The translations under genes and the position numbers were made by a program. From positions 174,642 through 238,641 of the forward strand of contig JBEKOU010000003.1 of the NCBI GenBank assembly GCA_049521435.1: a DNA stretch of 64,000 nt, written 5' to 3'. Numbering within the stretch: the first letter of the stretch is position 1; each line of letters opens with the position of its first letter. A model generated the notes under the pieces. It did no database searches. It was not told where the DNA came from and worked only from the letters and a program-made list of their open reading frames with translations. Shown piece after piece: positions 16,558 through 39,487 of the stretch. The DNA comes from Candidatus Dormibacteria bacterium (lineage in GTDB: Bacteria; Chloroflexota; Dormibacteria; Aeolococcales; Aeolococcaceae).

Positions 16558-18696
16558 GTGACGGGAGAGGAGGCGGGGCGGGCGCCGAGCGCGGCGGCCC
16601 TCAGAGTGGCCCACGACGTCTTCGGGCTGTCCGCGCTGCGCCCCGGTCAGGCAGAGGTCATCGCCGCCGCCGAGGGCGGGCGGGACGTCCTCTTCGTCGC
16701 CCCCACCGGCTCCGGCAAGAGCGTCGCCTACTGGGTCCCGGCCCTCGCGTCACCCGGGCTCACCCTGGTGGTCTCCCCCCTCATCGCTCTGATGACCGAC
16801 CAGGTCATCCGCCTCCGGCGGGCGGGCGTGGCCGCGGCCGCGATCCACTCCCAGATGGAGGTCGGGGAGCAGCGTGAGGCGCTCGCGGCGGCGCTCGACG
16901 GCCGGCTGCGGTTCCTCTACGTCGCCCCCGAACGCCTCGCCACCCCGAGCTTCGAGGAACGCCTCGCCCAGCTGGGAGTCACCCGGTTCGTCGTCGACGA
17001 GGCCCACTGCATCTCCAGCTGGGGAAACGACTTCCGCCAGGAATACCGCCGGCTGGCCGGGGCGGTGACAGCCTGCGGGCGGCCCCCGGTGACCGCGGTC
17101 ACCGCCACCGCCACCCCCCAGGTCCGTGAGGACATCAGCAGGAACCTGGCGCTGCGGAAACCATTCACCGTGGTGACCGGATTTGTCCGCATTGGACTCA
17201 CCCTCGAGGTGCAACGGTGTCGCCAGGGTGCCGAGAAGCTGCGGGCGGTGGCGCGGGCCGTTGCCGAGGTGCCGGGCCGGGCCCTCGTCTACTGCGGCCG
17301 GATCCGCGACTGCGAGGAGACGGCGGTGGCGCTCCGGGCGGACGGGGTCGCCGCCGCCGCCTACCACGGCGGGCTGGACGGCCCGGTGCGGAGTCGTGTC
17401 CAGACGGCGTTCACCGAGGGCGGGCTCCGGGTGGTGGTGGCGACCTCCGCCTTCGGGATGGGGGTGGACATCCCCGACATCCGCCAGGTCATCCACCGTG
17501 ACTTCCCCGCATGCCTGGAGGACTACCACCAGGCGGCGGGCCGCGCTGGGCGGGACGGCCTGCCCGCCCGCTGCCTGCTCCTCTACAACCCTGCCGACCG
17601 CGGCCTCCAGGAGCTGTTCATCGCCCAGTCGTACCCGGAGAGGGAGGTGGTGCGCGAGGTCTACCGGGCGCTGCTCCGGGCCGGTCGCTGGGACCTGCCG
17701 GAGCCGGCGGGGCTCGTCCCGAACCTTGACCGCCGGGCCGTGGAGGCGTCGGTGCGGCTGCTCGAGAACGCGGGTGCCCTGCTCCCGGGTGGGGAGGTCC
17801 GCCGTCTCACCGGAGCGCCGGTCGACTTCGAGGAACGGCGGCGCCTGAGGGAGGCTGCCCTCGCCCGGCTCGACCAGATGATGGCGTACGCCACCTCGCG
17901 GGAGTGCCGCCACGCTCGCATCGCCGACTATTTCGGCGAGCAGGGGGTGGCGCGCAGCTGCTCCGCCTGCGACAACTGCCTCTCCCCGCGCCCCGCCGAG
18001 CGGCCCGTCCCCGAATCGGCGGTGCGGGCGGCGCTCCGCGGCGTTGCCCGGTTCGACGGCCATCTCGGGGGCACCCGGCTGGCCGCTGTGCTCCGCGGCG
18101 CGGACTCGGCTTGGAACAGGGACCGGCCCTGGGTGCGGGAGCTGGACTTCTTCGGTGCCCTGGCGGGTTGGGAGGAGGCGGCGGTCCGGGAGCTGCTCGT
18201 GAAGCTGGTGGAGCGGGAGCTGGTCCTCCGCGGCCACGGGGAGCGGCCGACGCTCGGGCTGGCGCCGGCCGGGCGGGCGGTGCTGCGCGGGGAGCGGGAG
18301 GTGACCGTGTCCATCCCCGGATCGTCGCGGGCCTCCCGGCCGGAGGGGCCGCCCTCATCGGGCCACCGCGCCGGGCGGCGGCCGGTGGCGACGCCGGCCG
18401 CCGTCGGGTCGAGAGCTGCCACGGGGGACCAGCCGGAGGCACCCGGGCAGCTGCGCTTCGAACTTCTCCGGCGCTGGCGACTGGGACTGGCGCGGGCGGA
18501 GGCGCGCGCCGCGTTCACGATCTTTGACGACAGGACCCTCCGCGAGATCGCGGAGCGGGACCCGGGTTCGGTGGCCGACCTCCTCCAGGTGCACGGCGTC
18601 GGTGCAGCGAAGGCGTCGCGCTACGGGGACGCGGTCATCGGTGTCTTGCGCGACACCGGACGATCCGCTGACGCCTTGCCGGCTCGGCCAGATTGA
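16558..18696 (+). CDS. recQ: ATP-dependent DNA helicase RecQ, with C-terminal HRDC region
   Basis: 'LRPGQAEVIAAAEGGRDVLFVAPTGSGKSVAYWVPAL...DEAHCISSWGNDFR', and a zinc-binding / winged-helix region. GTG start at 16558. Confidence 0.9.
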   Translation: MTGEEAGRAPSAAALRVAHDVFGLSALRPGQAEVIAAAEGGRDVLFVAPTGSGKSVAYWVPALASPGLTLVVSPLIALMTDQVIRLRRAGVAAAAIHSQMEVGEQREALAAALDGRLRFLYVAPERLATPSFEERLAQLGVTRFVVDEAHCISSWGNDFRQEYRRLAGAVTACGRPPVTAVTATATPQVREDISRNLALRKPFTVVTGFVRIGLTLEVQRCRQGAEKLRAVARAVAEVPGRALVYCGRIRDCEETAVALRADGVAAAAYHGGLDGPVRSRVQTAFTEGGLRVVVATSAFGMGVDIPDIRQVIHRDFPACLEDYHQAAGRAGRDGLPARCLLLYNPADRGLQELFIAQSYPEREVVREVYRALLRAGRWDLPEPAGLVPNLDRRAVEASVRLLENAGALLPGGEVRRLTGAPVDFEERRRLREAALARLDQMMAYATSRECRHARIADYFGEQGVARSCSACDNCLSPRPAERPVPESAVRAALRGVARFDGHLGGTRLAAVLRGADSAWNRDRPWVRELDFFGALAGWEEAAVRELLVKLVERELVLRGHGERPTLGLAPAGRAVLRGEREVTVSIPGSSRASRPEGPPSSGHRAGRRPVATPAAVGSRAATGDQPEAPGQLRFELLRRWRLGLARAEARAAFTIFDDRTLREIAERDPGSVADLLQVHGVGAAKASRYGDAVIGVLRDTGRSADALPARPD

Positions 18697-22574: not shown

Positions 22575-23372
22575 ATGTCCCCACGCTCTCGGTTCGCCCT
22601 GGCAGCCCTCGGCGCGACTGCCGTTGCTGCCGCACCCGCCGCGGTGATGGCCTCGACCTATGTGGTGAGGCCCGGCGACACCCTGACCGGGATCGCCCTG
22701 CGCCACGGCTCGTCGGTCCAGGCCCTCGTCGACGCCAACCAGCTGGGCGCTCCCGGGCCGCTTCGCGTCGGCCAGCTGCTCGAGATCCCCGACCCTTCGC
22801 GCAGCCTGCCCGCCTATGTCGCGGGTAGCCAGGACCTCGACACCTGCACGGTGAGCGCGGGCGAGACCCTCTGGACCATCTCCCGGCGCTACGGCGTCGA
22901 CCCCACGGCCCTGGCTCGCGCCAACGGGCTGAACGTCAACGCCCTGCTGCCGGCCGGCGCTCCGATCCAGGTCCCCGGACGCCTGGTCCGGGTCAACGCC
23001 CTGCTGACCCACGTGGCCCAGCAGGCCGAGGTGGAGCCGGGACTGGTCAAGGCGGTGGCGTGGATGGAGTCGGGCTGGCGACAGGATCTGGCCTCACCCA
23101 CCGGAGCCGTTGGTCTGATGCAGGTCGAGCCCTACACGGGCGAGTGGGTCTCCCAGTTCCTGGCCCACCGGGCCCTCAACCTGCGCACCGCCGAGGACAA
23201 CGTGACCGCCGGAACCCTCCTGCTGGGCCACCTGATCTGGATGCATGGGGGAGACACCGCTCAGGCGCTCGCCGCCTACTACCAGGGCGACGCCAGCATC
23301 GCCGAGCACGGGCTCTTCCTCGACACCCAGCAGTATCAGCGCGCGGTCCTCGACCTGATGGCGTCGGACTAG
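22575..23372 (+). CDS. secreted lytic transglycosylase with two LysM domains
   Basis: Signal peptide 'MSPRSRFALAALGATAVAAAPAAVMA'. Two LysM domains ('YVVRPGDTLTGIALRHG', 'CTVSAGETLWTISRRYG'). The SLT domain has 'AVAWMESGW...GLMQV'. Confidence 0.8.
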   Translation: MSPRSRFALAALGATAVAAAPAAVMASTYVVRPGDTLTGIALRHGSSVQALVDANQLGAPGPLRVGQLLEIPDPSRSLPAYVAGSQDLDTCTVSAGETLWTISRRYGVDPTALARANGLNVNALLPAGAPIQVPGRLVRVNALLTHVAQQAEVEPGLVKAVAWMESGWRQDLASPTGAVGLMQVEPYTGEWVSQFLAHRALNLRTAEDNVTAGTLLLGHLIWMHGGDTAQALAAYYQGDASIAEHGLFLDTQQYQRAVLDLMASD

Positions 23373-23455
23373 CCGGACTGGGTGGCCGCTCTCTCGAGTG
23401 GCTTTTCCACAGGGTTGCGCACAGGTTTTGCCCAGCGTGGTCCGGCTGCGTCCGG

Positions 23456-24280
23456 TCAGGCGGCGGTCTCTCCCGAGGCCGCCCCTTCCCGGATCTCGGG
23501 GACCGGGAGGGAGAGGCAGCGCACCCCGCCTCCCGACTTCATGAACTCGCCCATGGGCAAGCCCAGCGCCCGGTAGCCCGCCGCCCGGAGCTGGCCGCTC
23601 AGCCCCTCCACCGCCTCGGAGGAGATGGCCACGTCGCCGACAACCATGGCGTTGCAGGCGAAGCCGGCCGCAATGTCGTCGGGGACCTCGATGACCCGCC
23701 CGGCCAGACGCCGCACCGCCTCCCGCGAGGCGGACGAGAAGGCCGCCGGGGCATAGAGGATGGCGCCGCCGTCGAGGGGGCAGAAGCAGGTGTCCAGGTG
23801 GTAGTAGCGGGGGTCGACGAGTTCCAGTTCCACGACGTCGACGCCGAGGGCACGGGCGACCAGGGGGATCGCGGCCCGGTCGGTGCGGAAGCCGTGCCCG
23901 CAGACCAGGGTGTCCCCGACGAAGAGGGCGTCCCCGGCTCCCTCGAAGGGGATGCCTGCGGTGTCGAGCATCGGCGTTCCCCGGCGGCTGAAGAGCTCCC
24001 GCCAGCGCGCCTCCTCCCCCTGCCTCTCAGGGTGCCGGAACCGGCTGAGCACCACCCGGCCGCCGTGCGTCACCCCGGCGTTGGCCGTGAAGACCATGTC
24101 GGGGAGCCCGGGCACGGGGTCGGCGACCACGACCTCGACACCGAGGTCCTGGTAGGTGGCGCGCAGAGCCCCCCATTGGTCCGCGGCCCGCCGGGCGTCG
24201 ACGGGGCTCGCGACGTGCATCCAGGGATTGATCTCGTAGATCACCCCGAAGTGGGTGGGGGGGCACATGAGGATGGGCAT
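23456..24280 (-). CDS. amidinotransferase-superfamily enzyme (dimethylarginine dimethylaminohydrolase-like)
   Basis: 'YHLDTCFCPL' and a C-terminal catalytic 'GGGVRCLSL', which form the His/Cys pattern of the DDAH/ADI fold. Confidence 0.7.
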   Translation of the reverse strand: MPILMCPPTHFGVIYEINPWMHVASPVDARRAADQWGALRATYQDLGVEVVVADPVPGLPDMVFTANAGVTHGGRVVLSRFRHPERQGEEARWRELFSRRGTPMLDTAGIPFEGAGDALFVGDTLVCGHGFRTDRAAIPLVARALGVDVVELELVDPRYYHLDTCFCPLDGGAILYAPAAFSSASREAVRRLAGRVIEVPDDIAAGFACNAMVVGDVAISSEAVEGLSGQLRAAGYRALGLPMGEFMKSGGGVRCLSLPVPEIREGAASGETAA

Positions 24281-24402
24281 CGCCGATGCCTCGTCGGGAC
24301 GGGCCGATCGCGCCAGGGCGGGGAACTCCCGTCAACCGATGAGCCGATCATCGCACAGGCCCGGACGCGGGACCGCGATGGCCCGCGCTGAGGCGGACCG
24401 CC

Positions 24403-25452
24403 TCAGGGGAGGGGGCGCGACGAGACCTCGAGGGGGAGGGCGGTCAGGACGGTGGGCCGGAAGCCCCGAGCCGGGACCGGCCGGCTGGGTGGTGGAGGCA
24501 CCGGATCCCGGCGGACGCACCAGGCCGGGTCGATGTCATCGCGCAGGGTGACGACCTCGGCACCGCACAGGCTGCCATCGGCACCGCGATTGCGGTAATC
24601 GACGGTGGCGATGAGCGGTGACCGCATCCGGCCGCCGGGCGCCGCCCACCGCCAGAGCGTCGAGGTCTCGGCGATCTCCGCCGTCCCCGCCTCGGTGAGC
24701 CGCGAGCCCTGGTACTCGGCCAGCCGGAGGCGGCGATGGCGGGTGGATCCCAGAACCCTGTCGGTGCCGACCACGAGACAGTGGGCCCGGTGCCTCAGGG
24801 GGATGCGGAGGCGGTCCGGCGAAGCCATCCCGGGGTGGTAGTGGGAGCTTCCCCGCCGGGCGAGGAGCGCGGGCAGGTGGCGGGGAGCGGCGGCGTCCGC
24901 GAGTGCCTCCCCTTCTCCGATGACCCAATCGGGCACCTGGATTCGGGAGTCGGGAAGGGCTATCCCTCGGAGCAGGTCGAGCCGGCGGTCGAGGGCCAGC
25001 CCCATGGTGGCCCGGGCGCCCAGGTGGAGGAGGTCGATGGCCAGATAGACGGCGGGCAGCCTCTGGTGCGTGGCCGGTCCCAGGGCCATCCTCTCCCCCA
25101 GCGCGACCAGATCGGGGCAACCGGACGGGTCGAGGACGGCGACGACCCCATCGAGGACGACCGAGCGGAACGCCAGCGGCTCGGCCGCAGCCACGATCTC
25201 TGGATACCGGTCGCTGACGTCGGCGAGCGTCTCGCTCTGGAGACGGACAACCCCGGGGGAGGCGAAGAGGAGTGTCCGCGCCCCGTCCCAGTCGATCGAG
25301 AAGCGGAAGTCGGGATCGTCGAAGGCCCCGACACAAGGGACCGAGGACTCCGGGAGGACCCGTCCCGGGAGCGCCGGAGGGACGGGGAGGCGGAGGGGAA
25401 GAGCGGCGTCCTCAGGGTCCGGACGGTTGTCCCGATCGGTGGTCGGTCGCAC
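24403..25452 (-). CDS. ATP-dependent DNA-ligase-like protein (LigD/LigC type) whose catalytic motifs lack lysine
   Basis: Adenylation-domain-like motifs: 'FRFSIDWDGAR', 'VVLDGVVAVLD', 'ALLARRGSSHYHPG' and 'RLRIPL'. It lies 6 bp downstream of ku on the same strand. Confidence 0.7.
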   Translation of the reverse strand: MRPTTDRDNRPDPEDAALPLRLPVPPALPGRVLPESSVPCVGAFDDPDFRFSIDWDGARTLLFASPGVVRLQSETLADVSDRYPEIVAAAEPLAFRSVVLDGVVAVLDPSGCPDLVALGERMALGPATHQRLPAVYLAIDLLHLGARATMGLALDRRLDLLRGIALPDSRIQVPDWVIGEGEALADAAAPRHLPALLARRGSSHYHPGMASPDRLRIPLRHRAHCLVVGTDRVLGSTRHRRLRLAEYQGSRLTEAGTAEIAETSTLWRWAAPGGRMRSPLIATVDYRNRGADGSLCGAEVVTLRDDIDPAWCVRRDPVPPPPSRPVPARGFRPTVLTALPLEVSSRPLP

Positions 25453-25457
25453 CCTAT

Positions 25458-26330
25458 TCAGGACGCGCGGCGGCGACGGGCGGACGCGGTGGCCCGTTCC
25501 GGCTCGGCCTCTTCGGCGATGCCGTCCTCCCGTCGACGGGCCGAAGCCTCGACCGACGCCTTGAGGACGGCCATCAGGTCGGTGATCTGAGCGAGCGGCG
25601 GTGAGGGGATGCGCTCGAGCGGCCGGTCGTTGAGCTTCGCCTCGACCAGGCTCTCGACGGCGTCCCGATACCCATCCCGATGCCGCGCAGGATCGAAGCG
25701 GGCGGCGAGGTTCTCGACGAGCATCACGGCCATCTCCAGCTCCCGGGCGTGGACCTCGACCTCCGCCTCGGGGAGGGCGAGCTGTCCCGCGTCCCGGATC
25801 TCGTCCGGCCAGTGGAGGGTGTTGAGCAGGATGGCCCGCTCGTGGAGCGCCAGGCGGCAGAGGTGCTCACGGTCGCGCATGGCGACCTTGCCGACCGCGA
25901 CCTTCCCGGTCTTCTGGAGGGCCATCCTCAGAAGCTGGTAGGGCTTGACCCCGACTGCCTCGGGCTCTAGGTAGTAGGCACCCTTGACGTAGACCCCCGC
26001 GTCGATCTCGGAGTCATCGCAGAACTCCAGGATCTCGATGGTCCGGGTCGACGCCAGGGGCAGGTTGTCCAGCTCCTCGTCCTCGATCCGCACGTACTCG
26101 TCCTTGCCGACCTCGAAGCCGCGCACGGCGTCGTTCCAGCCGACCTCGCACTCCTCGACGGGGCACCACCGCTTGTTCCGGAGCGGCGCGCCGTCGCGCG
26201 GGCAGAGGAGGCGGAAGGCGACCCCCTTGGACTCGTTGGCGAGGTACATCCGCACCGGGATGGCGACCATCCCGAAGCTGATCGCACCCCGCCACATCGA
26301 CCTGGGCATCGATCGAGTATATGCGGACAT
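25458..26330 (-). CDS. ku: Ku protein (non-homologous end joining)
   Basis: 'MWRGAISFGMVAIPVRMY' is the canonical Ku N-terminus. A basic C-terminal tail is present. Confidence 0.9.
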   Translation of the reverse strand: MSAYTRSMPRSMWRGAISFGMVAIPVRMYLANESKGVAFRLLCPRDGAPLRNKRWCPVEECEVGWNDAVRGFEVGKDEYVRIEDEELDNLPLASTRTIEILEFCDDSEIDAGVYVKGAYYLEPEAVGVKPYQLLRMALQKTGKVAVGKVAMRDREHLCRLALHERAILLNTLHWPDEIRDAGQLALPEAEVEVHARELEMAVMLVENLAARFDPARHRDGYRDAVESLVEAKLNDRPLERIPSPPLAQITDLMAVLKASVEASARRREDGIAEEAEPERATASARRRRAS

Positions 26331-26383
26331 CCCCGGCCGCGGCGAGGCGGACGGGGAGCAACCCTAGGCGGTCAGCCGATCGC

Positions 26384-27643
26384 TCACCACTGCTGGCGGG
26401 TCGCCGGCGAGCTCCCCATCAGGTCGAAACCGGGGTCCTCCACTGGGACGAAGGCGGACTCCACCGCCACCCGACCCGGGCCGATGCAGCGCAGCCAGAG
26501 GTAGCGGTTTCCCCACGACCGCCACGAGCGGTAGGCGCCCGCCGGGTGCTCGAAGTGGAGGTGCATGGAGACGGAGAGGTCCTTGTAGAGGAGCGCGGTG
26601 GGCTTGATGAGCATGGTCTCGCCGGGGCCGAGGCGCCGGACGAAGGCGTTGCCCTTGGCGTGGAGCAGCACCAGCCCGGGCGCCCGGGGCGCGGTGAACC
26701 GGTCCAGGAACTGGCCCATCGGGTAGTGGGTCTCCTGCTCGTTCTGGCCCTTCATGGTGGTGAAGTAGATCCCGCTCATCACCCAGTCATAGGCGGTCGC
26801 CCCGCTGGCGATGAGCATGGTGTGCTCGCGCACCTCGACCCCGCTGCCAACCTGGATGGGCAGGGCGACGATCTCGCCGGCCGCATCGTGGCTGAAGGCG
26901 ATGTGACCCTTGCCGGTGGCCTGGACCATCACCAGGGGCATGCCGGCGAACGTCCGGCTCCAGCCGCCCCGGAGCTTCAGGGTGTCGATGGTGACGCCGT
27001 CGTCGCGGAACAGCAGGGTGTGGTGCATGAAGTAGACCGACTCGCCACCGTCGAGGGTCACGTCGGCCACCGGGACCACGGTGCCCTCGATCTGGCAGGT
27101 GGACTGGCCGAACTGGATGCGGGCCATGTCCTTGACGGCGGGGAGCTGGGTCCAGCCGGAGGTGTCCTGGATGGCGCGGACGTCGACGGGGGCGCCGCAG
27201 GAGGGGCAGCTCGTACCGGGGTTCTGGCTCGACATGGAGCACCAGGGACAGGTGTAGGAGCCGGGCGGGGCCGGGGCCGCAGCCGGCGGCTGGGCCATCG
27301 CGGGCGGCGGCGCGAAGGGCGTGCCGGGTGGCACCTGCTGGGGCGGGAAGGGTCCGCCGGGGCCCGGCATCCGCGAGATGTCGGGGATGGGGATGCCCAG
27401 GGGTCCGCGCCGGAACGGGAAGGGCATGCCCGGCTGTGGTGCCCAGCCGGGAGCGCCGGCTGGCTGGCCACCGGGGGACGCGGGCCCGGCGGGCGGGGGC
27501 CCCGGGGGCGGGCCGCCGGGCTGGACCGGATTGGCCGGGGAGCCGAAGTTCGGAGAGCCCTGCCCCGGGGCGGGTGCCGGGTTGGCGGGGGAGCCCCACT
27601 TGGGAGAACCCTGATCAGGCGGCGGCGGAGGGTTGGAGGCCAT
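26384..27643 (-). CDS. AIM24/DUF124-family protein with N-terminal Pro-rich low-complexity region and zinc ribbon
   Basis: The N-terminus repeats 'GSPxxGSPANP' with poly-Pro. A C4 ribbon 'CPWCS...CPSCG' follows. The AIM24-like core includes 'TLDGGESVYFMHHTLLF...KLRGGWSRTFAGMPLVMVQATGKGHIAFSHDAAGEIVALPIQ'. Confidence 0.8.
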   Translation of the reverse strand: MASNPPPPPDQGSPKWGSPANPAPAPGQGSPNFGSPANPVQPGGPPPGPPPAGPASPGGQPAGAPGWAPQPGMPFPFRRGPLGIPIPDISRMPGPGGPFPPQQVPPGTPFAPPPAMAQPPAAAPAPPGSYTCPWCSMSSQNPGTSCPSCGAPVDVRAIQDTSGWTQLPAVKDMARIQFGQSTCQIEGTVVPVADVTLDGGESVYFMHHTLLFRDDGVTIDTLKLRGGWSRTFAGMPLVMVQATGKGHIAFSHDAAGEIVALPIQVGSGVEVREHTMLIASGATAYDWVMSGIYFTTMKGQNEQETHYPMGQFLDRFTAPRAPGLVLLHAKGNAFVRRLGPGETMLIKPTALLYKDLSVSMHLHFEHPAGAYRSWRSWGNRYLWLRCIGPGRVAVESAFVPVEDPGFDLMGSSPATRQQW

Positions 27644-27650
27644 CTCGCCG

Positions 27651-28463
27651 CTACTCGGTCGCGTGGTGGACGTACATGGACTGTATGCCGAGCCGCCCGG
27701 GCCCGGTCATCCGCACCATGTGCAGCCCGGCCCCGCCGAAGAGTCCCGTGGAAAGCTTCTGGGTCTCGACCGTCATCTGCACCGAGGAGTCCTTGTAGAG
27801 ATAGGCCCCCGGCTCGAGGAGGATCGACTGCCCGGCCGCGAGCTGCCTCTCGAAGACGTTGCCGTAGCCGTGGAGGATGAGGAGCCCCGGCTGCCCGGCG
27901 GCGATGAAGCGGTCCATGAACATGCCCTGCCCTCCGAAGAGGGCGGTGCGCATTCCCTGGATCCGGGTGTACGAGTACTGGACGGTGTGGGAGGCGAGCA
28001 GGAAGGCGTGCTCCCGGGCGTCCAGCTCCATGGACGGATGGAGCGGCAGGACCACCAGCTCACCCGTGGCGTCGCGGGAGAAGGCGATCCGGCCGGGCCC
28101 GCGGGCGGTGGTCACGATGTGGGGCATCCCCGCGAACGACCGCTTCATCATCCCCTGGAGGGGCATGACGCCGACCGGCACGGTCTGGTCCTTCCAGAGC
28201 ATCACGTGGTGCTCGAAGAAGACGCCGTCCTCGGGCGAGAGGGTGATCTCGGCGACCGGGACCAGCTCCCCCTCCACCTGGCAGGACGAGGACCCGAAGT
28301 GGAACTCGGTCATGTCGCGCAGCCGGGGGGCCTCCCGCCACCCCGAGTCGGACACCAGGTTGCGGACGTCGAGAGGCGCCCCGCAGGTCACACAGCTCTG
28401 GGCGCCGGCCGGGCTCTGACCATGGCACCACTGGCACTCGATGCGCTGGCCGACGGCTTCCAT
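27651..28463 (-). CDS. AIM24/DUF124-family protein with N-terminal zinc ribbon (paralog of 26384..27643)
   Basis: Ribbon 'CQWCHGQ...CVTCGAPLDV'. The core is colinear with its neighbour, for example 'MMKRSFAGMPHIVTTARGPGRIAFSRDATGELVVLPLH'. Confidence 0.8.
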   Translation of the reverse strand: MEAVGQRIECQWCHGQSPAGAQSCVTCGAPLDVRNLVSDSGWREAPRLRDMTEFHFGSSSCQVEGELVPVAEITLSPEDGVFFEHHVMLWKDQTVPVGVMPLQGMMKRSFAGMPHIVTTARGPGRIAFSRDATGELVVLPLHPSMELDAREHAFLLASHTVQYSYTRIQGMRTALFGGQGMFMDRFIAAGQPGLLILHGYGNVFERQLAAGQSILLEPGAYLYKDSSVQMTVETQKLSTGLFGGAGLHMVRMTGPGRLGIQSMYVHHATE

Positions 28464-28561
28464 TGGCGATTCTCCCTGTGGCGGACGGCAAGATCGTAAC
28501 CACCCGACCGCCGCTCATGTGAGACGGACCCGGCGGCCGGGGAGGGGCGAAGAGGAGGACG

Positions 28562-29734
28562 TCAGACGGCGGGCGGTTGCGGTGGAGCGGGCGGGGCGTC
28601 AGGGACGACCGGCGGCGCGACGGGAGCCGGCGCGGCGCCCACCGGCTGACCGCAGCCGGCGCAGAAACGGGCTCCCGGGGCCAGCTCGGCACCACACCCG
28701 GTGCAGTGAGCCGCACCCAGCGGACCGCCGCAGCTGGGGCAGAAGCGGCCCCCGGCGGGGCTTGTCGCCTGGCATTTGGGGCACTGGACCGTCGCCGCTG
28801 CGGGTGCCGGAGCGGCAGGCGCGTAGCCTCCGCCGGCGCCACCGGGGAAGCCTGTCCCCGCCGGCGGAGCCGGGGCGGCCTGGACCGGCTGCGCCATCTG
28901 CCCGCCGAGGCCAAAGCCGGCGGCCATGAACGCGGGCGAGACCGCCCCGCCTCCCTGAGCCATCCCCTGGCCGGCGCCCAGCGCCATTTCACCGGCCGCA
29001 TATCCCTGGAAGGAACCCGCCAGCCGCGAGTAGGCCGTGTCCTTGCTGAACTGCTCCAGCCGCTTCTGGGACTCGTCGTCGAGGCTGATCGTGAAGTTCC
29101 CCATCCGGGCGACGGTCAGGCCGTAGGTGGCAAGCTGCTGGTTGGCCAGCTCGATGATCGCGTTCTCGATGTCCTCGGTGTAGGCGGCGAGCCCCAGGAT
29201 CGGCCAGCCGTTGCGCACGATCTGCTTGGTGACGTCGGTGCGCAGCACCTTGAGCAGCTGCTCGGCCACCCAGTTGGTCACTGCGGAGTTGTCGGTGACG
29301 TCCACGGTGCCCACCAGGTTGACCAGGAGGTTGGCGGGCTCCACGACCTTGAGGCTGTAGTCGCCGAAGACCCGCAGCGACACGATCAGGGTGCTGACCG
29401 GATCCTGAACCGAGTCGATCTTGCCCCCGAAGCGATTCTGGGTGAACTCGCGGTTGCCGACGAAGTACAGCTCGGCGCGGTACAGGTTGCCCCCGGTGAG
29501 GGCGTCGGCGAAGATGCCGAGAAAGGGAAGCTCGGTGGCGTCGATGGAGTGCCTGCCGGGGGGCAGGGTGCCCTTGACCTGGCCCTGGTACATGAACACC
29601 GCGAGCTCGTCCGGCGCGACGATCGCGTGGGTGAAACGCCGGATCTCGTGGTCAGGCCACTTGAAGACGATCTGGCCCTTGCGGTCGTCGGGGACCGCGA
29701 TGTTTTCTCGTGCTCCGGGGAAGAAGCCAGGCAT
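28562..29734 (-). CDS. SPFH/Band-7-family protein with Gly/Ala/Pro-rich linker and two C-terminal zinc ribbons
   Basis: The N-terminal 260 aa match the SPFH pattern (for example 'LAVFMYQGQVKGTLPPGRHSID', 'ELYFVGNREFTQNRFGG'). The C-terminus carries 'CPKCQ...CPSCG' and 'CTGCG...CAGCG'. Confidence 0.75.
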   Translation of the reverse strand: MPGFFPGARENIAVPDDRKGQIVFKWPDHEIRRFTHAIVAPDELAVFMYQGQVKGTLPPGRHSIDATELPFLGIFADALTGGNLYRAELYFVGNREFTQNRFGGKIDSVQDPVSTLIVSLRVFGDYSLKVVEPANLLVNLVGTVDVTDNSAVTNWVAEQLLKVLRTDVTKQIVRNGWPILGLAAYTEDIENAIIELANQQLATYGLTVARMGNFTISLDDESQKRLEQFSKDTAYSRLAGSFQGYAAGEMALGAGQGMAQGGGAVSPAFMAAGFGLGGQMAQPVQAAPAPPAGTGFPGGAGGGYAPAAPAPAAATVQCPKCQATSPAGGRFCPSCGGPLGAAHCTGCGAELAPGARFCAGCGQPVGAAPAPVAPPVVPDAPPAPPQPPAV

Positions 29735-29769
29735 GGGTGTCTCTCTCCTCTCGCTGGACCGTCAGTAAA

Positions 29770-30081
29770 TTATGGGTTCTGGGTCGGCAGACCAAGGGCC
29801 CGGCGCACCGACCCGATCTGAAGCAGTGCCCAGAGGCCGCCGGCGGCCACTGCGAGGCCGAATCCACCCATGGCGATCAGGGCGCAGATCACCAGCACGG
29901 CGAGCGCGCCGTGCGCACCCGCGGTCGCGACCAGGACCATCAGGAAGACCCATAGACAGACCAGGGCCAGCACCGCGGCGGCGCCGACGACGGCAAGGCC
30001 CAGCCCCACCACGGCCCCGAGGGTCCGATCCGGGCCGGAGCGCGGGGAGAGGTTGGGGTTGGGATTGAACCAGGGCCGCAC
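29770..30081 (-). CDS. small membrane protein (2–3 predicted TM helices), first gene of the module
   Basis: A 103-aa ORF 36 bp upstream of the SPFH gene on the same strand. Hydrophobic segments: 'LGAVVGLGLAVVGAAAVLALVCLWVFLMVLVA' and 'LAVLVICALIAMGGFGLAVAAGGLWALL'. Confidence 0.45.
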   Translation of the reverse strand: MRPWFNPNPNLSPRSGPDRTLGAVVGLGLAVVGAAAVLALVCLWVFLMVLVATAGAHGALAVLVICALIAMGGFGLAVAAGGLWALLQIGSVRRALGLPTQNP

Positions 30082-30192
30082 GGCTGCAGCTTATCCGGCC
30101 GGGCGGCGAGGCGTCAAAGGGCCGCACGCCGACCTGCCGCAGGCTCCGGCGTCGATGTCGGAGTGGCCCGCGGGTCGCGAGGCGCGAGTACG

Positions 30193-32334
30193 ATGTCGGC
30201 ACCGTGCCGCCGGCGCTCGGCGGCTGCGCCGGTCGTGGCAGAGCCCCCCGACGCATCACCGGCAGCACCTCATCTTTCCCCGGAGCCGCGCCCGTTGGCC
30301 ACGTCCAGGAACACCGTCCCCCCCCGCCGCCCGCGAGCCGCAACCACGGTGCCGGTGCCCGCCGCGACGCCTACCGCGCGCGTCGCCATCGAGCAGCCGC
30401 GGCCCGTCGTGGAGTGCGGGAAGCTGCCAGCGAAGGCCACCGTCGGGATCCCCCTCACCGTCAGCGCCTCCATCTTCGCGGATGGTCACGATCTGGTCGT
30501 GGGCTGGGTCCGCCACGGCCGGCCCGACCCCGGCGGGGGCACCACCGACCGCTGGCAGGAAGTCCCGATGCGGGCGCTCGGCGATGACCGCTTCAGTGCC
30601 GTCCTCACCCCCACGCGGGTGGGATCGTGGTCTTTCGAGATCGCCGCCATGCCCGATCTCTACGGCAGCTGGCTTGCCGATCTCCGTATTCGCCTCGATG
30701 CCGGCCAGGACATCGCCCTCGAGCTGGAGGAGGGTGCGGCGATGGCCGAGCGGGCGGCAGCCCTCCCCGGCACCGCGGACGGCGACCGCCAGGAGCTGAC
30801 GGCCCTGGCCACCCGACTCCGCGACCCGAGCGCGGCGCAGGCGCATCGCCTCGGTGAGGCGGCGCGACCCGTGACGGTCAGGCGGATGCGACAGACCGCG
30901 GACCGCGGGACCGCCACCCGCTCCGGACCATGGCGGCTCACGGTGGAGCGCGAGCTGGCGGGGTTCTCCGCCTGGTACGAGATGTTCCCGAGGTCGGAGG
31001 GGGCGGAACCGCCCCGGAGTGGCACCTTCGGGAGCGCGGCCGCCCGGCTGCCCGCCATCGCCGCCATGGGTTTCGACGTGGTCTACCTCCCCCCCATCCA
31101 CCCGATCGGCCGGAGCTTCCGGAAGGGACCGAACAACGCCACCGCGACGGCTCCCGGGGATGTCGGCTCCCCCTGGGCGATAGGGGCGGCCGAGGGAGGC
31201 CACACGGCTGTCCACCCCGATCTCGGGACGCTCGACGACTTCGCCCTGTTCGTGGCGGAGGCCGAGCACCGCGGTCTGGAGGTCGCCCTCGATTACGCAC
31301 TCCAGTGCAGCCCCGACCATCCCTGGGTCAGCGAACATCCACAGTGGTTTCGCCACCGCGCCGATGGCAGCGTCCGCTACGCGGAGAACCCGCCGAAGCG
31401 CTATCAGGACATCTACCCGCTCGACTTCGGAACGGCGGACCGCGCCGGGCTGTGGACGGCGCTCCGCGACGTGATGCTCTTCTGGATCCAGCGTGGCGTG
31501 CGGATCTTCCGGGTCGACAATCCACACACCAAGCCGTTCGCGTTCTGGGAGTGGTTGATCGGCGAGATCCACCTCCACCACCCGGAGATCGTCTTCCTGG
31601 CCGAGGCGTTCACCCGGCCGGCCGTGATGCAGCGGCTGGCCAAGGTCGGCTTCAGCCAGTCCTACACGTACTTCACCTGGCGCACCTCCAAGGCGGAGCT
31701 GAGCGAGTACCTCACCGAGCTGTCCCAGACCGAGAGGGTCGACTGGTTCCGGCCCAACTTCTGGGTCAACACCCCCGACATCCTCCACGCGTACCTTCAG
31801 CTGGGCGGACCGGCAGCCTTCCGGGTGCGCGCGACCTTGGCGGCGACCACGGCCCCCTCCTGGGGGATGTACAGCGGCTACGAGCTCTGCGAACGGGTGG
31901 CTGCCGCGCCGGGCAGTGAGGAGTACGCCGACTCCGAGAAGTACCAGCTCCGGCCCCGCGATTGGGACCGCCCGGACAGCCTGGCGCCGTACATCACCCG
32001 GCTCAATGACATCCGGCATCGCCACCGTGGGGCGATCGCGCTGCTGCCAACACTGCGCATCCAAGAGATCAGGAACGACAGCATGCTCTGCGTCAGCCGG
32101 GTGGACCAGAACCGCGACGACGTGCTCCTGGTGGTGGTCAACCTCGACCCCCACCATCCCCAGGAGGGCACCATCTGGCTCGACCTGGAGGGGCTCGGGA
32201 TCCCGGCCGACATCCCCTTCGAGGCCTACGACGAGCTGACCGGCACCACCTACGTCTGGCAGGGGCCGGAGAGCTACGTCCGCCTCGACCCGGCCCAGCA
32301 GTCGGCTCACGTGCTCCATCTCCGGCGCCGATGA
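30193..32334 (+). CDS. glgE: alpha-1,4-glucan:maltose-1-phosphate maltosyltransferase
   Basis: '[14 protein letters not shown]...[14 protein letters not shown]...[15 protein letters not shown]...WFRHRADGS'. In-frame ATG at 30193. The ORF track start at 30163 is a GTG. Confidence 0.85.
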
Positions 32335-34100
32335 GCAAGGCGGTTTCGGCACCCACCTCCGGCATGGCGGCCCCCGCGCCCGAGCCCCAGCCCGACGCCG
32401 TGACCCCCGTGGCTCCGGCCCCGCGTGCAGATCCCTCGGCGCCGCCGGTCGCAGGCGACCGGGACCCGCTCTGGTTCAAGCGCGCGGTCTTCTACGAGGT
32501 GCTGGTCCGCGGGTACGCGGACAGCAACGACGACGGCGTCGGCGACTTCCCGGGGCTGATCGAGCGTCTCGAGTACCTGCGATGGCTGGGCATCGACTGC
32601 CTCTGGCTGCTGCCGTTCAATGACTCCCCACTCCGCGACGGCGGCTATGACATCAGGGACTACTACTCGGTCCTGCCCGCCTACGGCACCGTGGACGACG
32701 TCCGGGGGCTGGTGTCCCGCGCTCACGACCTCGGGATGCGGGTGGTCATGGACCTCGTCCTCAATCACACCTCGGACCAGCATCCCTGGTTCCAGTCCGC
32801 CCGCTCGTCGCCGGCCTCACCGCATCGCGACTACTACGTCTGGTCGGACACCAAGAACCGGTACACCGACGCCCGGATCATCTTCGTCGACGCCGAGACG
32901 TCGAACTGGACCTGGGACGACAGCGCCCAGGCGTACTACTGGCATCGCTTCTTCAGCCATCAGCCCGACCTCAACTACGACAACCCCAAGGTCCACGAGG
33001 AGATGGTGGACATCTGCCGCTTCTGGCTTGACCTGGGGATCGACGGATTCCGCCTCGACGCGGTCCCCTACCTCTACGCTCGCGACGGCACCAACTGCGA
33101 GAACCTGCCGGAAACCCACGCCTTCATCGCCGAGCTGCGCGCGATCGTCGACCGCGAGTACGGCGACCGCGTTCTCCTGGCGGAGGCCAATCAGTGGCCG
33201 GAGGACGTGGTCGACTACTTCGGCACCGCGGAGCGCCCCGAATGCCACGTGTGCTTCCACTTCCCGCTCATGCCCCGGATCTTCATGGGGCTGCGCCGGG
33301 AGCAGCGCTACCCGATCACCGAGATCCTGGAGCGCACCCCGGCGCTGCCGACCGCCAGCGCGCAGTGGGGGATCTTCCTGCGCAACCACGATGAATTGAC
33401 ACTGGAGATGGTCACCGACGAGGAGCGCGACTACATGTGGCAGGAGTACGCGCAGGATCCCCGGATGAAGCTCAACCTGGGGATCCGGAGGCGCCTCGCA
33501 CCACTGGTCAACAACGGGCGGCGGCAGATGGAGCTCTTCTACGGGATGCTCCTCTCCCTGCCGGGCAGCCCGATCCTCTACTACGGCGACGAGATCGGGA
33601 TGGGCGACAACATCTACCTCGGCGACCGGGACGGGGTCCGGACTCCGATGCAGTGGAGCGCCGACCGCAACGGTGGATTCAGCCGCGCCGACTTCGCCCA
33701 GCTCTACCTCCCCCCGCTGATGGACCCGGTCTACGGATACCAGTCGGTGAACGTCGAGGCCCAGCGGCGCAGCGAGACCTCGATGCTGCAGTGGCTCCGC
33801 CGCTTCGTCGCGGTCCGGCGGCGCTGGCCGGTATTCGGCCTGGGGAGCTTCGAATCGCTCAACGCGACCAACCCGTCGGTGTTTGCGTATCTCCGCACCC
33901 ACGAGGATCATGCTGTCCTTTGCGTGAACAATCTTTCGCGGTTCGCCCAGCCGGTGGAGCTGGATCTCCGCCGCTATGCCGGGATGACCCCGGTCGAGAT
34001 GCTGGGGAGGGTCCACTTCCCGAAGATCCGGGAGCTGCCCTACCTGCTCACCCTCGCCCCCCACGGGTTCTACTGGTTCAGCATCGAGAGCATTCCGTGA
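32331..34100 (+). CDS. treS: trehalose synthase / maltose alpha-D-glucosyltransferase
   Basis: '[52 protein letters not shown]...[15 protein letters not shown]'. Its ATGA start overlaps the glgE stop. Confidence 0.9.
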
Positions 34101-34113
34101 GGCCCGCCGCGCG

Positions 34114-35634
34114 GTGGCTCTGAACACCGATCCCAGCGCCGTGCAGCTGGAGCCGTTCGGCATCGCCGGCGCGACCGGCGACATCCGGTCGTGGCTGCTG
34201 AAGGCACGCTGGTTCGGCGGCAGGCAGCACCGGGTGGAGCGAATCGAGCTGGACGACCTCGCGGTGCTGCGGGTCGCGGACCCGACCGTCCTCTTCACCC
34301 TCTGGCGGGTCGACTATGCGGACGCGCCCCCGGAGACCTACAGCCTCCCCCTGGGGATCAGGGTCGGCTCCCCCCCGATCGGCGAGCTGGGCCCGGACCA
34401 CCTGATCGGGACCACCAGCTCGGCGCGCGGCTCGCTCCTGGTCTACGACGCCCTTGCCGACCCCGAAGCCACGGTCGAGCTGTGGCGCATGCTGGCGGAG
34501 GAGCGGGAGGTCGCGACCCGCGCCGGACGGCTGATCAGCCGGCATCTCGTCGGCATCGACCCCGACGCCGCCGATCGTCCCCGGCTCCTGGACGTCGAGC
34601 AGAGCAACTCCGCGGTCGTCCGGGGCCACCTCGACTTCCTCAAGTGGAGCCGGCGGATCGAGGCCGGTCCCAGCGTGGAGCTGGAGATGGCCCAGGCCCT
34701 GGCGGAGCGGCACTTCGCCCACGTGCCGGCACTGCACGGGCACGTGAGCTACCGGCGCGGGGCCGGCGCACCCGCCCTCCAGGCCCTGCTCCACGCCTAT
34801 CTCCACAACGGCACGCAGGGGTGGACACTCGCCCTCACGTCGCTGCGCGATCTCTACGCCTCCGCCGAGGAGTCCGGCACGGATTCCCCACGGGAGCGTT
34901 GGGAGATGGTCGACGACCAGGGCGGGTCATTCCAGGGCGAGGCCGCCCGGCTGGGCACGGTCACCGCTGAGCTGCACCTGGCCCTCGCCGACCCCGAGCG
35001 CGGTGGCGTCCTCGCGCCGGAGGCGGTCGGCCCCGCACAGCTCGCGGCCTGGGCAGACGCGATGACCGGGCAGCTCGACCGCCTGCTCACCTCGGGAGAC
35101 CGCGCCCTGGCCGCGCTGAGCGAGAGACGGGCGCCGCTGGTCGCCCGATTCGACGCTCTCCGCCGGCTCGGTGAGGGCGGGCTGGCGATCCGGGTCCACG
35201 GCGACTACCACCTGGGCCAGGTGATACGGATCGATCAGGGCTGGAAGATCATCGACTTCGAGGGGGAGCCGGCCGGCGAGGTCGAGGCGAGACGGCGGCG
35301 CTCCTCGCCGCTGCGTGACGTGGCGGGGATGCTCCGCTCCTTCGATTACGCCGCCGCGGCGGCGCTGGCTCAGCGCATGCAGCCCCGCGATCCGCTCTGG
35401 CACCACCTCTCGGCGGCCGGAGAGGCGTGGGCGGCCGCCAATCGCGACGCCTTCTGGGCCGCCTACCTGGAGCGGGTGAACGGCACCGGGCTCCTCCCCG
35501 GGGGAGGCGGCGCCCTGGTGGTCCGGCGGGCCTTCGAGGTCAGCAAGGCGGTCTACGAGGTGGGCTACGAGCTCGGCCACCGACCCGACTGGGTGGGGAT
35601 TCCCCTCCATTTCCTGCTGGCGGCGACGCCGTGA
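34114..35634 (+). CDS. mak: maltokinase (Mak/Pep2)
   Basis: Position directly after treS, and an aminoglycoside-phosphotransferase-like C-terminal half ('[28 protein letters not shown]'). Confidence 0.8.
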
Positions 35635-37853
35635 CGGCGGAGCGGAAGACCTCGCTGGCCGCGGACTGTGCCCGGCTCGCGGCCGGCACCCACAGCGATC
35701 CCCACCGGGTCCTCGGCCCCCACCCCACCGGCGACCAGGTGGTGGTGCGCTTCTTCCACCCCGAGGTGGTCGAGGTCTCAGTCGCCCACCCCGGCGGGGT
35801 CGTGCCGATGCGCCGGGTGGACGCACGCGGCCTCTTCGAGGCGACCGTGCCGGTCAAGGAGCTGGCGGGTTACCGGCTGCGATGCCGCACGGCGAACGCC
35901 GGCTGGGAGATGGACGACCCCTACCGCTTCTGGCCCTCGCTCGGGGACCTCGACCTCCACCTGATCGGGGAGGGGACCCATCGCGAGCTCTGGCGACGGC
36001 TCGGGGCGAGGGTGATGGACCACCAGGGGGTGAGCGGGGTCGCTTTCGCGGTCTGGGCCCCCAACGCCCGGGGGGTGAGCCTGGTGAGCGATGCCAACGG
36101 CTGGGATGCCCGCGTGCAACCCATGCGCTCGCTCGGGAGCAGCGGGGTGTGGGAGCTCTTCGTCCCCGACATCGGAGCTGGGACCAAGTACAAATTCCGA
36201 GTCGTCTGCTCCGATGGGCGGCGGATCCTCAAGGCGGACCCGCTCGCCAGGGCGGCGGAGGCGCCGCCGAAGACGGCCAGCATCGTCGAGAGGAGCGCAC
36301 ACGAGTGGGGGGACCAGTCGTGGCTCGCCCAGCGCGCGGCCCAGCCCCTGCTCAATCGCCCGATCTCGATCTACGAGGTCCATCTCGGCTCCTGGCGCCG
36401 AAGCCCGGACGGCCACGTGCTCGGCTACCGGCAGCTGGCCGAGGAGCTGGCCGAGTACTGCGCGGAGAGCGGTTTCACCCATGTCGAGCTGCTGCCGGTG
36501 ACCGAACACCCCTTCGACGGGTCCTGGGGGTACCAGGTCTCCGGCTACTACGCGCCGACCGCGCGCTTCGGCAGCCCTGATGACTTCCGCTACTTCGTCG
36601 ACCACCTCCACCAGCGTGGCGTGGGAGTGATCCTGGACTGGGTGCCGGGGCACTTCCCCAAGGACGAATGGGCGCTGGCGCGCTTCGACGGCACGGCGCT
36701 CTACGAGCATGCTGACCCGCGGCGGGGCGAGCAGCCGGACTGGGGCACGCTGATCTTCAACTTCGGTCGTGTCGAGGTCCGCAACTTCCTCATCGCCAAC
36801 GCCCGCTTCTGGATCGAGGAATTCCATGCGGACGGGCTGCGGGTCGATGCCGTGGCCTCGATGCTCTATCTGGACTACTCGCGGAAACCGGGCGAATGGC
36901 TCGCCAACCAGTACGGAGGCAACGAGAACCTGGACGCCATCTCCTTCCTCCGGGAGGTCAACGAGGCGATCCACGGCGACTATCCGGGGGTGGTCAGCAT
37001 CGCCGAGGAGTCGACGGCGTGGCCCGGGGTGTCCCGCCCGACCTACGGAGGAGGGCTGGGCTTCACCTTCAAGTGGAACATGGGGTGGATGCACGACACC
37101 CTCGAGTACATGAGCAAGGACCCGATCTACCGCCGTTATCACCACAACGAGATGACCTTCGGTTTCCTCTACGCCTGGACCGAGAACTTCGTGCTGCCCC
37201 TCTCCCATGACGAGGTGGTGCACGGCAAGGGGTCGTTGCTCAGCAGGATGTCGGGCGATCGCTGGCAGCAATTTGCCAACCTGCGCGCCCTCTTCGGCTG
37301 GATGTGGGCGTACCCCGGCAAGAAGCTGCTCTTCATGGGGGGAGAATTTGGGCAGGACGCGGAATGGGCTCATGACCGCTCCATCGACTGGCATCTGGTC
37401 CAGTTCGCGGAGCATCGGGGATTGCAGCGTCTGGTCCAGGACCTGGGCGCCCTGTACCGTGAGATCCCGGCGCTGTGGGAGCGCGATCACGAGCCCGACG
37501 GCTTCCAGTGGATCGACGCCGCCAACGTCGATCAGAACGTCTACATCTTCCTGCGGCGCGACGGGGAGGGCAGGCCGGTGCTCGTCTGCCTGGCCAACTT
37601 CTCGCCGACGACCCGCCATGGCTTCCGGGTCGGCGTACCGCTTCCCGGGCGCTGGCGAGAGGTGGTGAACACCGACTCCGAGGCGTACGGCGGCAGCAAC
37701 CAGGGCAATCTCGGCGGCATGGTCGCCGAACGGATCGGGTGGCATGGCCTGCCCTACTCGGCGTCGGTCACGGTCCCCCCCCTCGGCGTGGTGTGGCTCT
37801 CCCCCGAGGACCAGCCGGGGGATCCGGCCGGCTCGTCGGGGCCGATCGCATGA
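35631..37853 (+). CDS. glgB: 1,4-alpha-glucan branching enzyme
   Basis: The GTG at 35631 overlaps the mak stop (GTGA). '[27 protein letters not shown]...[17 protein letters not shown]...[17 protein letters not shown]'. Confidence 0.9.
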
Positions 37854-38344: not shown

Positions 38345-38370
38345 GCGCCGTCGTGGGCGACGGCCGGGCC

Positions 38371-39483: not shown

Positions 39484-39487
39484 GCGA

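Follow-up and report, generated by a model that had tools for sequence, protein, structure and literature searches.

A probable non-catalytic paralogue of the LigD ligase domain is encoded directly behind ku in Dormibacteria

In a stretch of 64,000 nucleotides from a soil bacterium, Candidatus Dormibacteria (contig JBEKOU010000003.1; hereafter the window), the gene following ku encodes what is, judging from its sequence, probably a paralogue of the LigD ligase domain that has lost catalysis, acting as a non-catalytic accessory factor of Ku-dependent end joining and tethered to Ku and DNA ends. The gene, here called pLig for pseudo-ligase, lies at 24403–25452 on the minus strand and encodes 349 amino acids from a GTG start. 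It was assigned from its homology to the LigD ligase domain, an AlphaFold (AF2) model, fold matches and the ratio of non-synonymous to synonymous substitution rates (dN/dS). A sequence-only reading of this DNA had proposed a pseudo-ligase retained in a ku operon, either as a structural scaffold or with a non-canonical mechanism, and the pseudo-ligase is supported by computed alignments, conservation and synteny. Between the two options the evidence leans toward the non-catalytic one, because all catalytic contacts are replaced, the family is essentially lysine-free and an intact LigD is found in the gene cluster of most relatives. The protein appears to be derived, as a pseudoenzyme, from a ligase domain of non-homologous end joining (NHEJ); its function we infer from the evidence below.

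The minus strand of 24403–26330 consists of two open reading frames (ORFs), ku and pLig. The ku gene (25458–26330, minus strand) encodes 290 amino acids from the first ATG, with the Ku core beginning at about residue 10–18. Its product matches the bacterial Ku model TIGR02772 with 262 bits (5.3e-78; cutoff 150) and PF02735 with 1.1e-37, in agreement with its earlier description as a canonical Ku gene, and is 66–97% identical to the Ku encoded upstream of pLig in 75 other loci. Between the TGA stop of ku and the GTG codon at which pLig starts lie 5 nt (ATAGG), a gap that the sequence-only reading had given as 6 bp.

A phmmer search of all PDB sequences returned the ligase domain of Mycobacterium tuberculosis LigD (1VS0) as the top match of pLig (E 1.8e-18), and a profile of the pLig family, built from 70 sequences, spans the whole 1VS0/6NHX chain, from the nucleotidyltransferase (NTase) domain through the OB domain (E 1e-37). 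The AF2 model has a predicted local distance difference test score (pLDDT) of 89.7 and a predicted TM-score of 0.85, with low confidence only at residues 1–30 and 331–349. Its closest folds in the PDB, found with Foldseek, are 6NHX, 6NHZ and 1VS0, with a TM-score of 0.60–0.69 to the ATP-bound closed LigD ligase domain 6NHX; closed archaeal ligases are also among the best matches (E 6e-20 to 1e-14 for LigD and archaeal ligases). As modelled, pLig folds like a closed ligase domain, and the NTase-then-OB architecture of ATP-dependent DNA ligases is present.

Four regions follow one another in the protein, all coordinates being on the minus strand. An N-terminal extension (residues 1–34; 25351–25452; pLDDT 51–70) has a variable start followed by a conserved LPLxLPxPPxLPGR. 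The NTase-like domain (residues ~35–232; 24757–25350; approximate limits) was delimited by profile alignment to 1VS0/6NHX and the secondary structure of the model, and the OB-fold domain (residues ~233–316; 24505–24756) by profile alignment to the OB domain of the same structures and the model strands; a conserved LRDD(V/I)DPxWC(V/I)RR closes the latter. The last region is a C-terminal tether (residues 317–349), described further below.

Matches to family models are weak. PF01068 (DNA_ligase_A_M) covers residues 44–181 only and scores 30.4 bits, just over the gathering threshold of 26.2, while PF04679 is found in more distant family members. The score against TIGR02779 (NHEJ ligase), 91.5 bits, is far under the equivalog cutoff of 227.75, and NF006078, labelled 'ATP-dependent DNA ligase' and presumably a LigC-type model, gives 37.5 bits (cutoff 296). 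At the level of sequence, the PF01068 match establishes homology and not activity.

Active-site motifs were read from an alignment to the family profile, comprising 77 pLig ORFs extracted from their loci and 225 lysine-bearing homologues, and from the phmmer alignment to 1VS0. In the degenerate motif I of the window protein, FSIDWDGAR (residues 51–59; 25276–25302, minus strand, as are all following motifs), Asp54 stands opposite the adenylated Lys481 of FEGKWDGYR in 1VS0 and Ser52 replaces the adenine-contacting Glu, with Asp56, Gly57 and Arg59 kept. The Asp54 codon, GAC at 25291–25293, is two substitutions from any lysine codon. The degenerate motif III, VLDGVVAVLD (residues 99–108; 25129–25158), keeps Asp101 and Gly102 and has Val103 opposite the motif III Glu, VVLDGVVAVLD aligning with VVLDGEAVVLD of 1VS0. 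Motif IIIa, AVYLAIDLLH (residues 134–143; 25024–25053), retains the aromatic residue 136 and Asp140, and its His143 is family-specific. The degenerate motif IV, LPALLARRGSSHYHPG (residues 193–208; 24829–24876), has Pro-Ala for Glu-Gly and Arg199 for Lys; the phmmer alignment pairs EGVIAKRRDSRYQPG of 1VS0 with PALLARRGSSHYHPG of pLig and, at this motif, EGVIAKR with PALLARR. In the degenerate motif V, SPDRLRIPL (residues 211–219; 24796–24822), Arg214, Arg216 and Pro218 replace Trp, Lys and Lys. Here the family-profile alignment places aSpdRLriaL opposite cASWVKDKhw, and RLRIP opposite WVKDK.

The motifs had been assigned from the letters in the sequence-only reading, with 'SIDWDGAR' as motif I carrying Asp at the lysine, 'VLDGVVAVL' in place of the motif III DGE, a motif IV segment and 'RLRIPL' as motif V. 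All of these assignments hold, the first also in the columns of the 225 homologues and the last in the family profile against 1VS0/6NHX. The phmmer alignment to the M. tuberculosis LigD ligase domain places no lysine at motif I of pLig. Restoration of the lysine by an alternative start or a frameshift was also considered; none exists, and the same frame and substitutions recur in 77 species.

The substitutions are characteristic of the whole family. At the motif I lysine, the 225 canonical proteins all have Lys and the 77 pLig ORFs have Asp (62) or Glu (14), with Lys in none; two residues before it, Glu (223/225) is replaced by Ser (74/77). Motif III Glu (224/225) gives way to Val in 72 of the 77. 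In motif IV, Glu (222/225) becomes Pro, Ala, Val or Ser, the invariant Gly (225/225) becomes Ala (68/77) and the equally invariant Lys (225/225) is Arg in all 77. Motif V shows Arg for Trp (224/225 against 77/77) and for the first Lys (223/225 against 71/77), and mostly Ala (33) or Pro (24 of 77) for the second Lys (209/225). Common to the family and the canonical set are Asp-Gly-x-Arg of motif I, Asp-Gly of motif III, the aromatic residue and Asp of motif IIIa, Tyr205 and Gly208; in motif IIIa, Tyr or Phe is found in 76 of the 77 pLig ORFs, Asp in all 77 and the family-specific His in 73. For comparison, the intact LigD of a related locus in the same phylum reads ELKYDGVR, VIDGE, EGMVAK and WLKVK.

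We take the adenine-, ribose-, metal- and phosphate-contact roles of the replaced residues from ligase structures. On these alignments, pLig has other residues in place of the nucleophile, of the residues contacting adenine and ribose, of the ligand of the catalytic metal and of the lysines that bind phosphate, so that the motif I Lys, the adenine- and ribose-contacting Glu, EG...K of motif IV and W.K.K of motif V expected of an ATP-dependent DNA ligase are absent. With all nucleotidyl-transfer residues replaced, pLig is therefore predicted to be unable to form enzyme-AMP in the canonical way.

Loss of lysine extends beyond the active site. The window protein has none in its 349 residues, where about four would be expected from the background of 1.25% in the 35 window genes checked, and its arginine content is 12%. 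Lysine is absent from 44 of the 77 family members as well (median 0, maximum 3), whereas LigD ligase domains of the same phylum have 8–14 each. G+C content of the window is about 71%. In such a GC-rich background lysine seems to us to persist only where it is needed, and none seems to be needed in pLig, which would fit the loss of lysine-dependent chemistry. The earlier remark that active-site lysines resist GC drift agrees with the co-resident LigD ligase domains of the same phylum, which keep all of theirs.

The family is widespread within one bacterial class. A search of 5.8 billion proteins found 108 relatives at 39–91% identity, mostly of 330–375 aa, and all those with an organism label are from Dormibacteria. 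The motif I lysine is absent in 108 of these 108, with Asp or Glu in its place in all but one. A scan of one genome per GTDB species gave 110 relatives, of which 78 loci (numbered with the prefix L below) were kept, nearly all labelled Dormibacteria or Dormiibacterota. The nearest relatives, 89–91% identical, are from Ca. Dormibacteria metagenome-assembled genomes (MAGs), such as the Ca. Changshengia bog_854, palsa_874 and fen_879 bins. Among 1.84 billion cluster representatives, about 20 full-length members score 250–490 bits against at most 220 for canonical LigD-type proteins. Eight loci (L017, L022, L025, L035, L042, L043, L080 and L084) have the Dormibacteria-type gene order, with Ku-pLig, mostly LigD-HNH upstream and a DDAH-like gene downstream, under the labels Actinomycetes, Binatia, Saccharimonadales or Acidiferrales, which seems to reflect wrongly labelled MAGs and not horizontal transfer.

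The pLig gene is under purifying selection. Its dN/dS is 0.19 at dS 0.73 against the 78% identical orthologue of L001, similar to 0.23 for the adjoining ku, and the ORF is intact at 337–378 aa in nearly all of the 78 species-level loci. Furthermore, 70 sequences 40–89% identical to the window protein share 26 invariant columns, substituted positions included, and motif I is among the most conserved stretches. pLig combines the loss of catalytic residues with purifying selection across species, as a pseudoenzyme does.

Ku is encoded directly upstream of pLig in all 75 loci that include upstream sequence, and the distance from the ku stop to the pLig start is mostly −4 to +26 nt. pLig is ku-adjacent, on the same strand and separated by a short junction, as is a member of a bacterial NHEJ cluster. 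Two gene orders can be distinguished. In clade B (~50 loci, 39–50% identical to the window pLig), gyrA-plsX-gyrB is followed by a full-length LigD, a small HNH gene, Ku, pLig and a DDAH-like gene. LigD of this clade comprises phosphoesterase, ligase, OB and primase-polymerase domains with intact catalytic motifs (motif I ELKYDGVR), and at least 10 clade-B pLig contigs, paired by their length with contigs among the best 120 of 3973 LigD matches, also carry LigD. Clade A, to which the window belongs (~21 loci, at least 59% identical), has the order Band7, AIM24, AIM24, Ku, pLig and DDAH-like, and no HNH gene was found within 6 kb except for a remnant in L027. The Ku-pLig junction has survived the clade-A rearrangement that removed LigD-HNH and brought in the AIM24 genes. 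Since it survived separation from LigD, the Ku-pLig pair can therefore be argued to be the selected unit.

The Pro-rich, predicted disordered tether at the C terminus (residues 317–349; 24406–24504, minus strand; pLDDT 52–55) varies in its linker sequence and carries a constant short linear motif. This motif, FRPTVLTALPL in the window protein (residues 331–341; 24430–24462, minus strand), has the consensus F-x-P-T-[VL]-[LI]-x-x-L-P-[LMFI] and is present across the species-level loci, with F331, P333, L339 and P340 invariant in 70 sequences. A six-frame reading of 1.16 Mb of related loci shows the pattern in pLig genes only. A conserved peptide on a tether predicted to be disordered is typical of short linear docking motifs, and Ku is the obvious candidate partner. 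Docking to the beta-clamp was considered unlikely and is not supported, as the tail contains no Gln and misfits the consensus (QLDLF in the DinB of the window). Tails of similar form (..L..LP[LF]) are carried by Ku- or LigD-linked paralogues, one of them lysine-intact, which suggests that the tail tracks the standalone, Ku-linked lifestyle and not the loss of catalysis.

The core family is not the only group of ligase-domain proteins without the lysine. In the search of cluster representatives, 16 standalone ligase-domain proteins of 307–401 aa lacking the motif I lysine rank just below it (P0132, P0138, P0140, P0141, P0144, P0148, P0153, P0156, P0160, P0169, P0176, P0196, P0200, P0207, P0229 and P0235; loci L007, L008, L009 and L089). 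Their motif I position is L, R, A, D, S or N; in motif V, lysine is replaced at most positions, and most of the proteins keep the motif IV lysine; several carry an LP[LF] tail, and those with an organism label are from Chloroflexota, Dehalococcoidia or Dormibacteria MAGs. Four of five paralogue contexts examined adjoin Ku and/or LigD: P0196 lies between Ku and LigD, P0268 directly after Ku, P0156 5 nt upstream of a LigD, and P0144 converges on a LigD; P0148 stands alone. A second standalone, putative ligase (346 aa; PF01068 and PF04679) of a Dormibacteria genome is encoded at L007:1855-2895, 8 kb upstream of an operon of Ku, a lysine-less paralogue and LigD.

In a neighbour-joining tree the core pLig family is monophyletic in 200/200 bootstraps, and deeper branching, which bears on a single versus multiple loss of the lysine, is weak. 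The lysine-less paralogues group with the core family in only 1/200 bootstraps, so the lysine was probably lost more than once. A lysine-intact standalone ligase (the P0133/P0290 cluster) occupies the same slot, 25 nt after ku, at L010:8001-9038. P0133 has intact motifs (FEVKWDGLR, VIDGE, EGVVAK, WLKVK), and P0133/P0290 groups with the lysine-less P0138, P0140, P0141 and P0196 in 140/200 bootstraps; the L010 protein probably resembles the ancestor of pLig. On the simplest history, a Ku-coupled standalone ligase existed in this lineage, and its catalytic activity was lost, probably on more than one occasion, where sealing could be left to a multidomain LigD; from one of these losses came the core family that includes the window gene and is now under strong constraint. 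Within Chloroflexota/Dormibacteria, dead paralogues of the ligase domain may extend well beyond this family.

In the mechanism that we propose, pLig would be made from the ku operon and act without ligase chemistry. It would be recruited to Ku-bound ends by the tail peptide FxPT(V/L)(L/I)xxLP(L) on its flexible tether or, alternatively, by ligase-domain surfaces like those that contact the C-terminal arm of Ku in M. tuberculosis. Once at the ends, it could hold, protect or align them, or gate the access of the real ligase. More speculatively, the acidic residue that replaces the lysine, together with the arginines that replace lysines around it, may form a salt-bridge network imitating the DNA-binding-competent ligase-adenylate state.

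Several points weigh against such an accessory role. The role itself is argued from synteny and sequence, and Ku as docking partner of the tail is a candidate only. In clade A (~21 loci), no LigD lies within 6 kb of pLig, neither a LigD nor a second ligase-like sequence was found in the window, and no clade-A contig could be paired by length with one among the best 120 of 3973 LigD matches. The C terminus of M. tuberculosis Ku contacts the ligase domain of LigD as well as the polymerase domain, through the LigD residues D522, K579 and L580 (bioRxiv 10.64898/2025.12.12.693941). In the phmmer alignment these map to F95, D159 and L160 of pLig; positions 95 and 159 vary in the family, and none of the three consistently matches the M. 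tuberculosis residue. Finally, conservation in pLig is highest at the former active-site pocket. A pure scaffold would not need this, and the pocket may thus still bind something; a built-in mimic of the adenylated state and a new ligand are both speculative options.

An elaboration that we put forward tentatively is that NHEJ in Dormibacteria is a three-protein system, in which a natural dead-ligase subunit co-translated with Ku would mimic the ligase-adenylate, with its acidic residue in the place of lysyl-AMP and held there by the arginines that replaced the phosphate-binding lysines, bind 5'-phosphate ends or nicks, bridge or protect them and dock onto Ku through its tail. If so, the system would parallel in bacteria, by means of a paralogue, what Lig4-XRCC4 does structurally, and pLig may let Ku use a non-LigD ligase where LigD is unlinked to ku.

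Among the alternatives to a non-catalytic accessory factor, the one that survives best is that pLig is a negative regulator or decoy, competing with LigD for the C-terminal arm of Ku or for DNA ends and so limiting mutagenic end joining, for example during growth. The same evidence, that is Ku linkage, a dead active site and a co-encoded LigD, speaks for it as for a scaffold, and with Ku contacting the LigD ligase domain in M. tuberculosis (bioRxiv 10.64898/2025.12.12.693941) a look-alike could compete. However, a decoy co-translated with Ku across a 5-nt junction, at about 1:1, would titrate the pathway at all times, and we regard this reading as rather unlikely.

We find it slightly more doubtful that the pocket has been re-purposed for a new ligand or reaction, such as a 5'-phosphate end or another nucleotide. 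In its favour, the substituted positions are 92–100% conserved, as strongly as in active ligases, and motif I is among the best-conserved stretches of the family. Candidate pocket residues are Ser52, Asp/Glu54, Asp56, Arg59, Asp101, Arg199, Arg214 and Arg216, together with the family-specific Glu35, Cys40, His143 and Gln172. Conserved charge pairs can equally be structural, though, and no ligand can be inferred from them; we also know of no precedent in the ligase superfamily for catalysis without the lysine.

A function unrelated to end joining, with the position after ku being merely the inherited gene order of one bacterial class, is improbable. All data are from one class with strongly conserved synteny, and unrelated neighbours (the DDAH-like and LysM/SLT genes) are conserved alongside pLig. 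Against this, the junction of only −4 to +26 nt has outlived the clade-A rearrangement, and divergent lysine-less paralogues adjoin Ku or LigD in other genomic contexts.

Even less can be said for pLig still being a ligase by a non-canonical route, performing step 3 only on DNA adenylated by LigD or using another nucleophile, and we consider this very improbable. The fold is retained, as are Asp-Gly-x-Arg of motif I, Asp-Gly of motif III and the aromatic residue and Asp of motif IIIa, and some ligases with the lysine mutated still seal nicks that were adenylated beforehand. But the motif IV Glu, the ribose- and adenine-contacting Glu and both motif V lysines are gone too, and most family members are without any lysine. 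A decaying pseudogene, the relic of a former ligase, might be suspected from the loss of all catalytic residues and the marginal Pfam score, but is refuted by conservation, with an ORF intact in nearly all 78 loci, a dN/dS of 0.19, 26 invariant columns and a confident predicted structure.

Bacterial NHEJ is usually described as a two-component system of Ku and LigD. A dead ligase domain that is class-wide, maintained by selection and coupled to Ku would add a non-catalytic third component. It would also offer a natural test of the structural, non-sealing job of NHEJ ligases, for which the case has so far been based on engineered mutants, and the conserved tail peptide is a concrete starting point toward a binding partner. 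Current annotation of these proteins inflates the ligase counts of Dormibacteria/Chloroflexota genomes: relatives of pLig are annotated as ATP-dependent DNA ligase, LigD or bifunctional NHEJ protein LigD, hypothetical protein, or 'DNA ligase-like domain-containing protein'.

The neighbours of the Ku-pLig pair deserve mention. Downstream lies a DDAH/arginine-dihydrolase-like (pentein) gene (23456–24280, minus strand; PF19420 7e-17; NF045659 267.6 bits, cutoff 300), whose membership of the unit is uncertain. It follows pLig in ~70 of 78 loci, with a gap of 122 nt in the window and a 4-nt overlap in L005. A guanidino-group-modifying enzyme beside a lysine-free protein with 12% Arg is curious and may be mere conserved gene order. 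A conserved LysM/SLT gene is also found among the neighbours of pLig loci. Upstream of ku in the window, 26384–29734 (minus strand) encodes a Band7/SPFH protein with a double zinc ribbon and two AIM24-family proteins, separated by short gaps; zinc-ribbon matches of the latter two are weak and sub-threshold. An AIM24 gene is 90–99% identical across the clade of the window, and the Band7-AIM24 block stands in place of LigD-HNH of the other clade.

The small HNH protein (~173 aa; PF01844/PF14279) encoded between ligD and ku in ~50 clade-B loci (e.g. L006:7422-7943, L033, L036 and L066), and absent from the window, is 70–98% identical across species and has weak PADLOC matches to PtuB, an HNH nuclease. 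A possible role within the NHEJ cluster is that of a nuclease that processes ends. The PADLOC models of anti-phage defence gave no match for pLig, Ku, AIM24, Band7 or the DDAH-like protein, no relative of pLig was found on viral contigs, and a promoter and terminator scan of 23200–30400 returned nothing above chance. The LigD ORF at L003:5810-8482 ends in about 100 Arg/His-rich residues resembling a frameshifted primase-polymerase C terminus. As the tblastn match to the polymerase domain also stops early in L044, from the contig of L003, this end is probably an assembly error.

Elsewhere in the window, 470–1852 (plus strand) encodes DinB (Pol IV) with the canonical QLDLF beta-clamp motif about 60 residues before the C terminus; the ORF as listed probably begins ~58 codons too early, taking in an Arg/Pro-rich leader. 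A RecQ helicase (16558–18696, plus strand; DEAD, Helicase_C, RecQ zinc-binding, RQC and HRDC domains) is located on the strand opposite to that of the ku cluster, 6 kb away from it. An alpha-glucan block of GlgE, an alpha-amylase/TreS-like protein and GlgB (30163–37853, plus strand) adjoins the ku cluster, the GlgE and TreS-like genes being adjacent in L001 and L002 too, and riboflavin and purine biosynthesis genes are found at 38233–55580.

Within the incompletely covered full-text literature, we found no lysine-less LigD-like protein and no bacterial NHEJ pseudo-ligase. A comparative NHEJ survey makes no mention of lysine, inactive, LigDom or pseudogene, and such a protein goes unmentioned in the passages found of a LigD structural review and a Streptomyces NHEJ gene inventory. 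The closest known relative is the LigD ligase domain (M. tuberculosis Rv0938; 1VS0, 6NHX and 6NHZ), which resembles pLig in its NTase and OB homology, as the best fold match, in its ku adjacency and in the retained Asp-Gly-x-Arg of motif I, Asp-Gly of motif III and motif IIIa. pLig differs in being only ~26% identical, in the replacement of the lysine nucleophile and five further nucleotidyl-transfer positions, in the absence of the phosphoesterase and polymerase domains, and in its extra N- and C-terminal extensions with conserved motifs of their own.

Two other groups share the standalone form. The P0133/P0290 ligase of L010 is of similar length (~345 aa), follows ku and has a similar C-terminal ..L..FPF tail, but its catalytic motifs are intact (P0133) and it is only ~28% identical to the window protein. 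The other lysine-less paralogues have likewise lost the motif I lysine and mostly replaced the motif V lysines, yet their lysine replacements vary and most keep the motif IV lysine. LigC is similar to pLig in size and domain content but is an active enzyme, reported as back-up for sealing when the LigD ligase domain is defective (PMC5124664) and as partner of Prim-PolC in excision repair (PMC5663958). With the eukaryotic XRCC4, XLF and PAXX there may be a functional analogy, as non-enzymatic factors working with Ku and a ligase at DNA ends, although no sequence or fold relationship to pLig exists.

Ligases inactivated by mutation offer a functional parallel. Ligase-dead LigD K484A of Mycobacterium smegmatis has been reported to support repair with comparable efficiency and lower fidelity (PMC12848934), and catalytically inactive Lig4 supports vertebrate NHEJ structurally (PMC9638927, PMC10858965, PMC11754673). 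In both cases a non-adenylating ligase still aids end joining, as we propose for pLig. These proteins are laboratory point mutants, however, whereas pLig is a natural, separately encoded and long-diverged paralogue.

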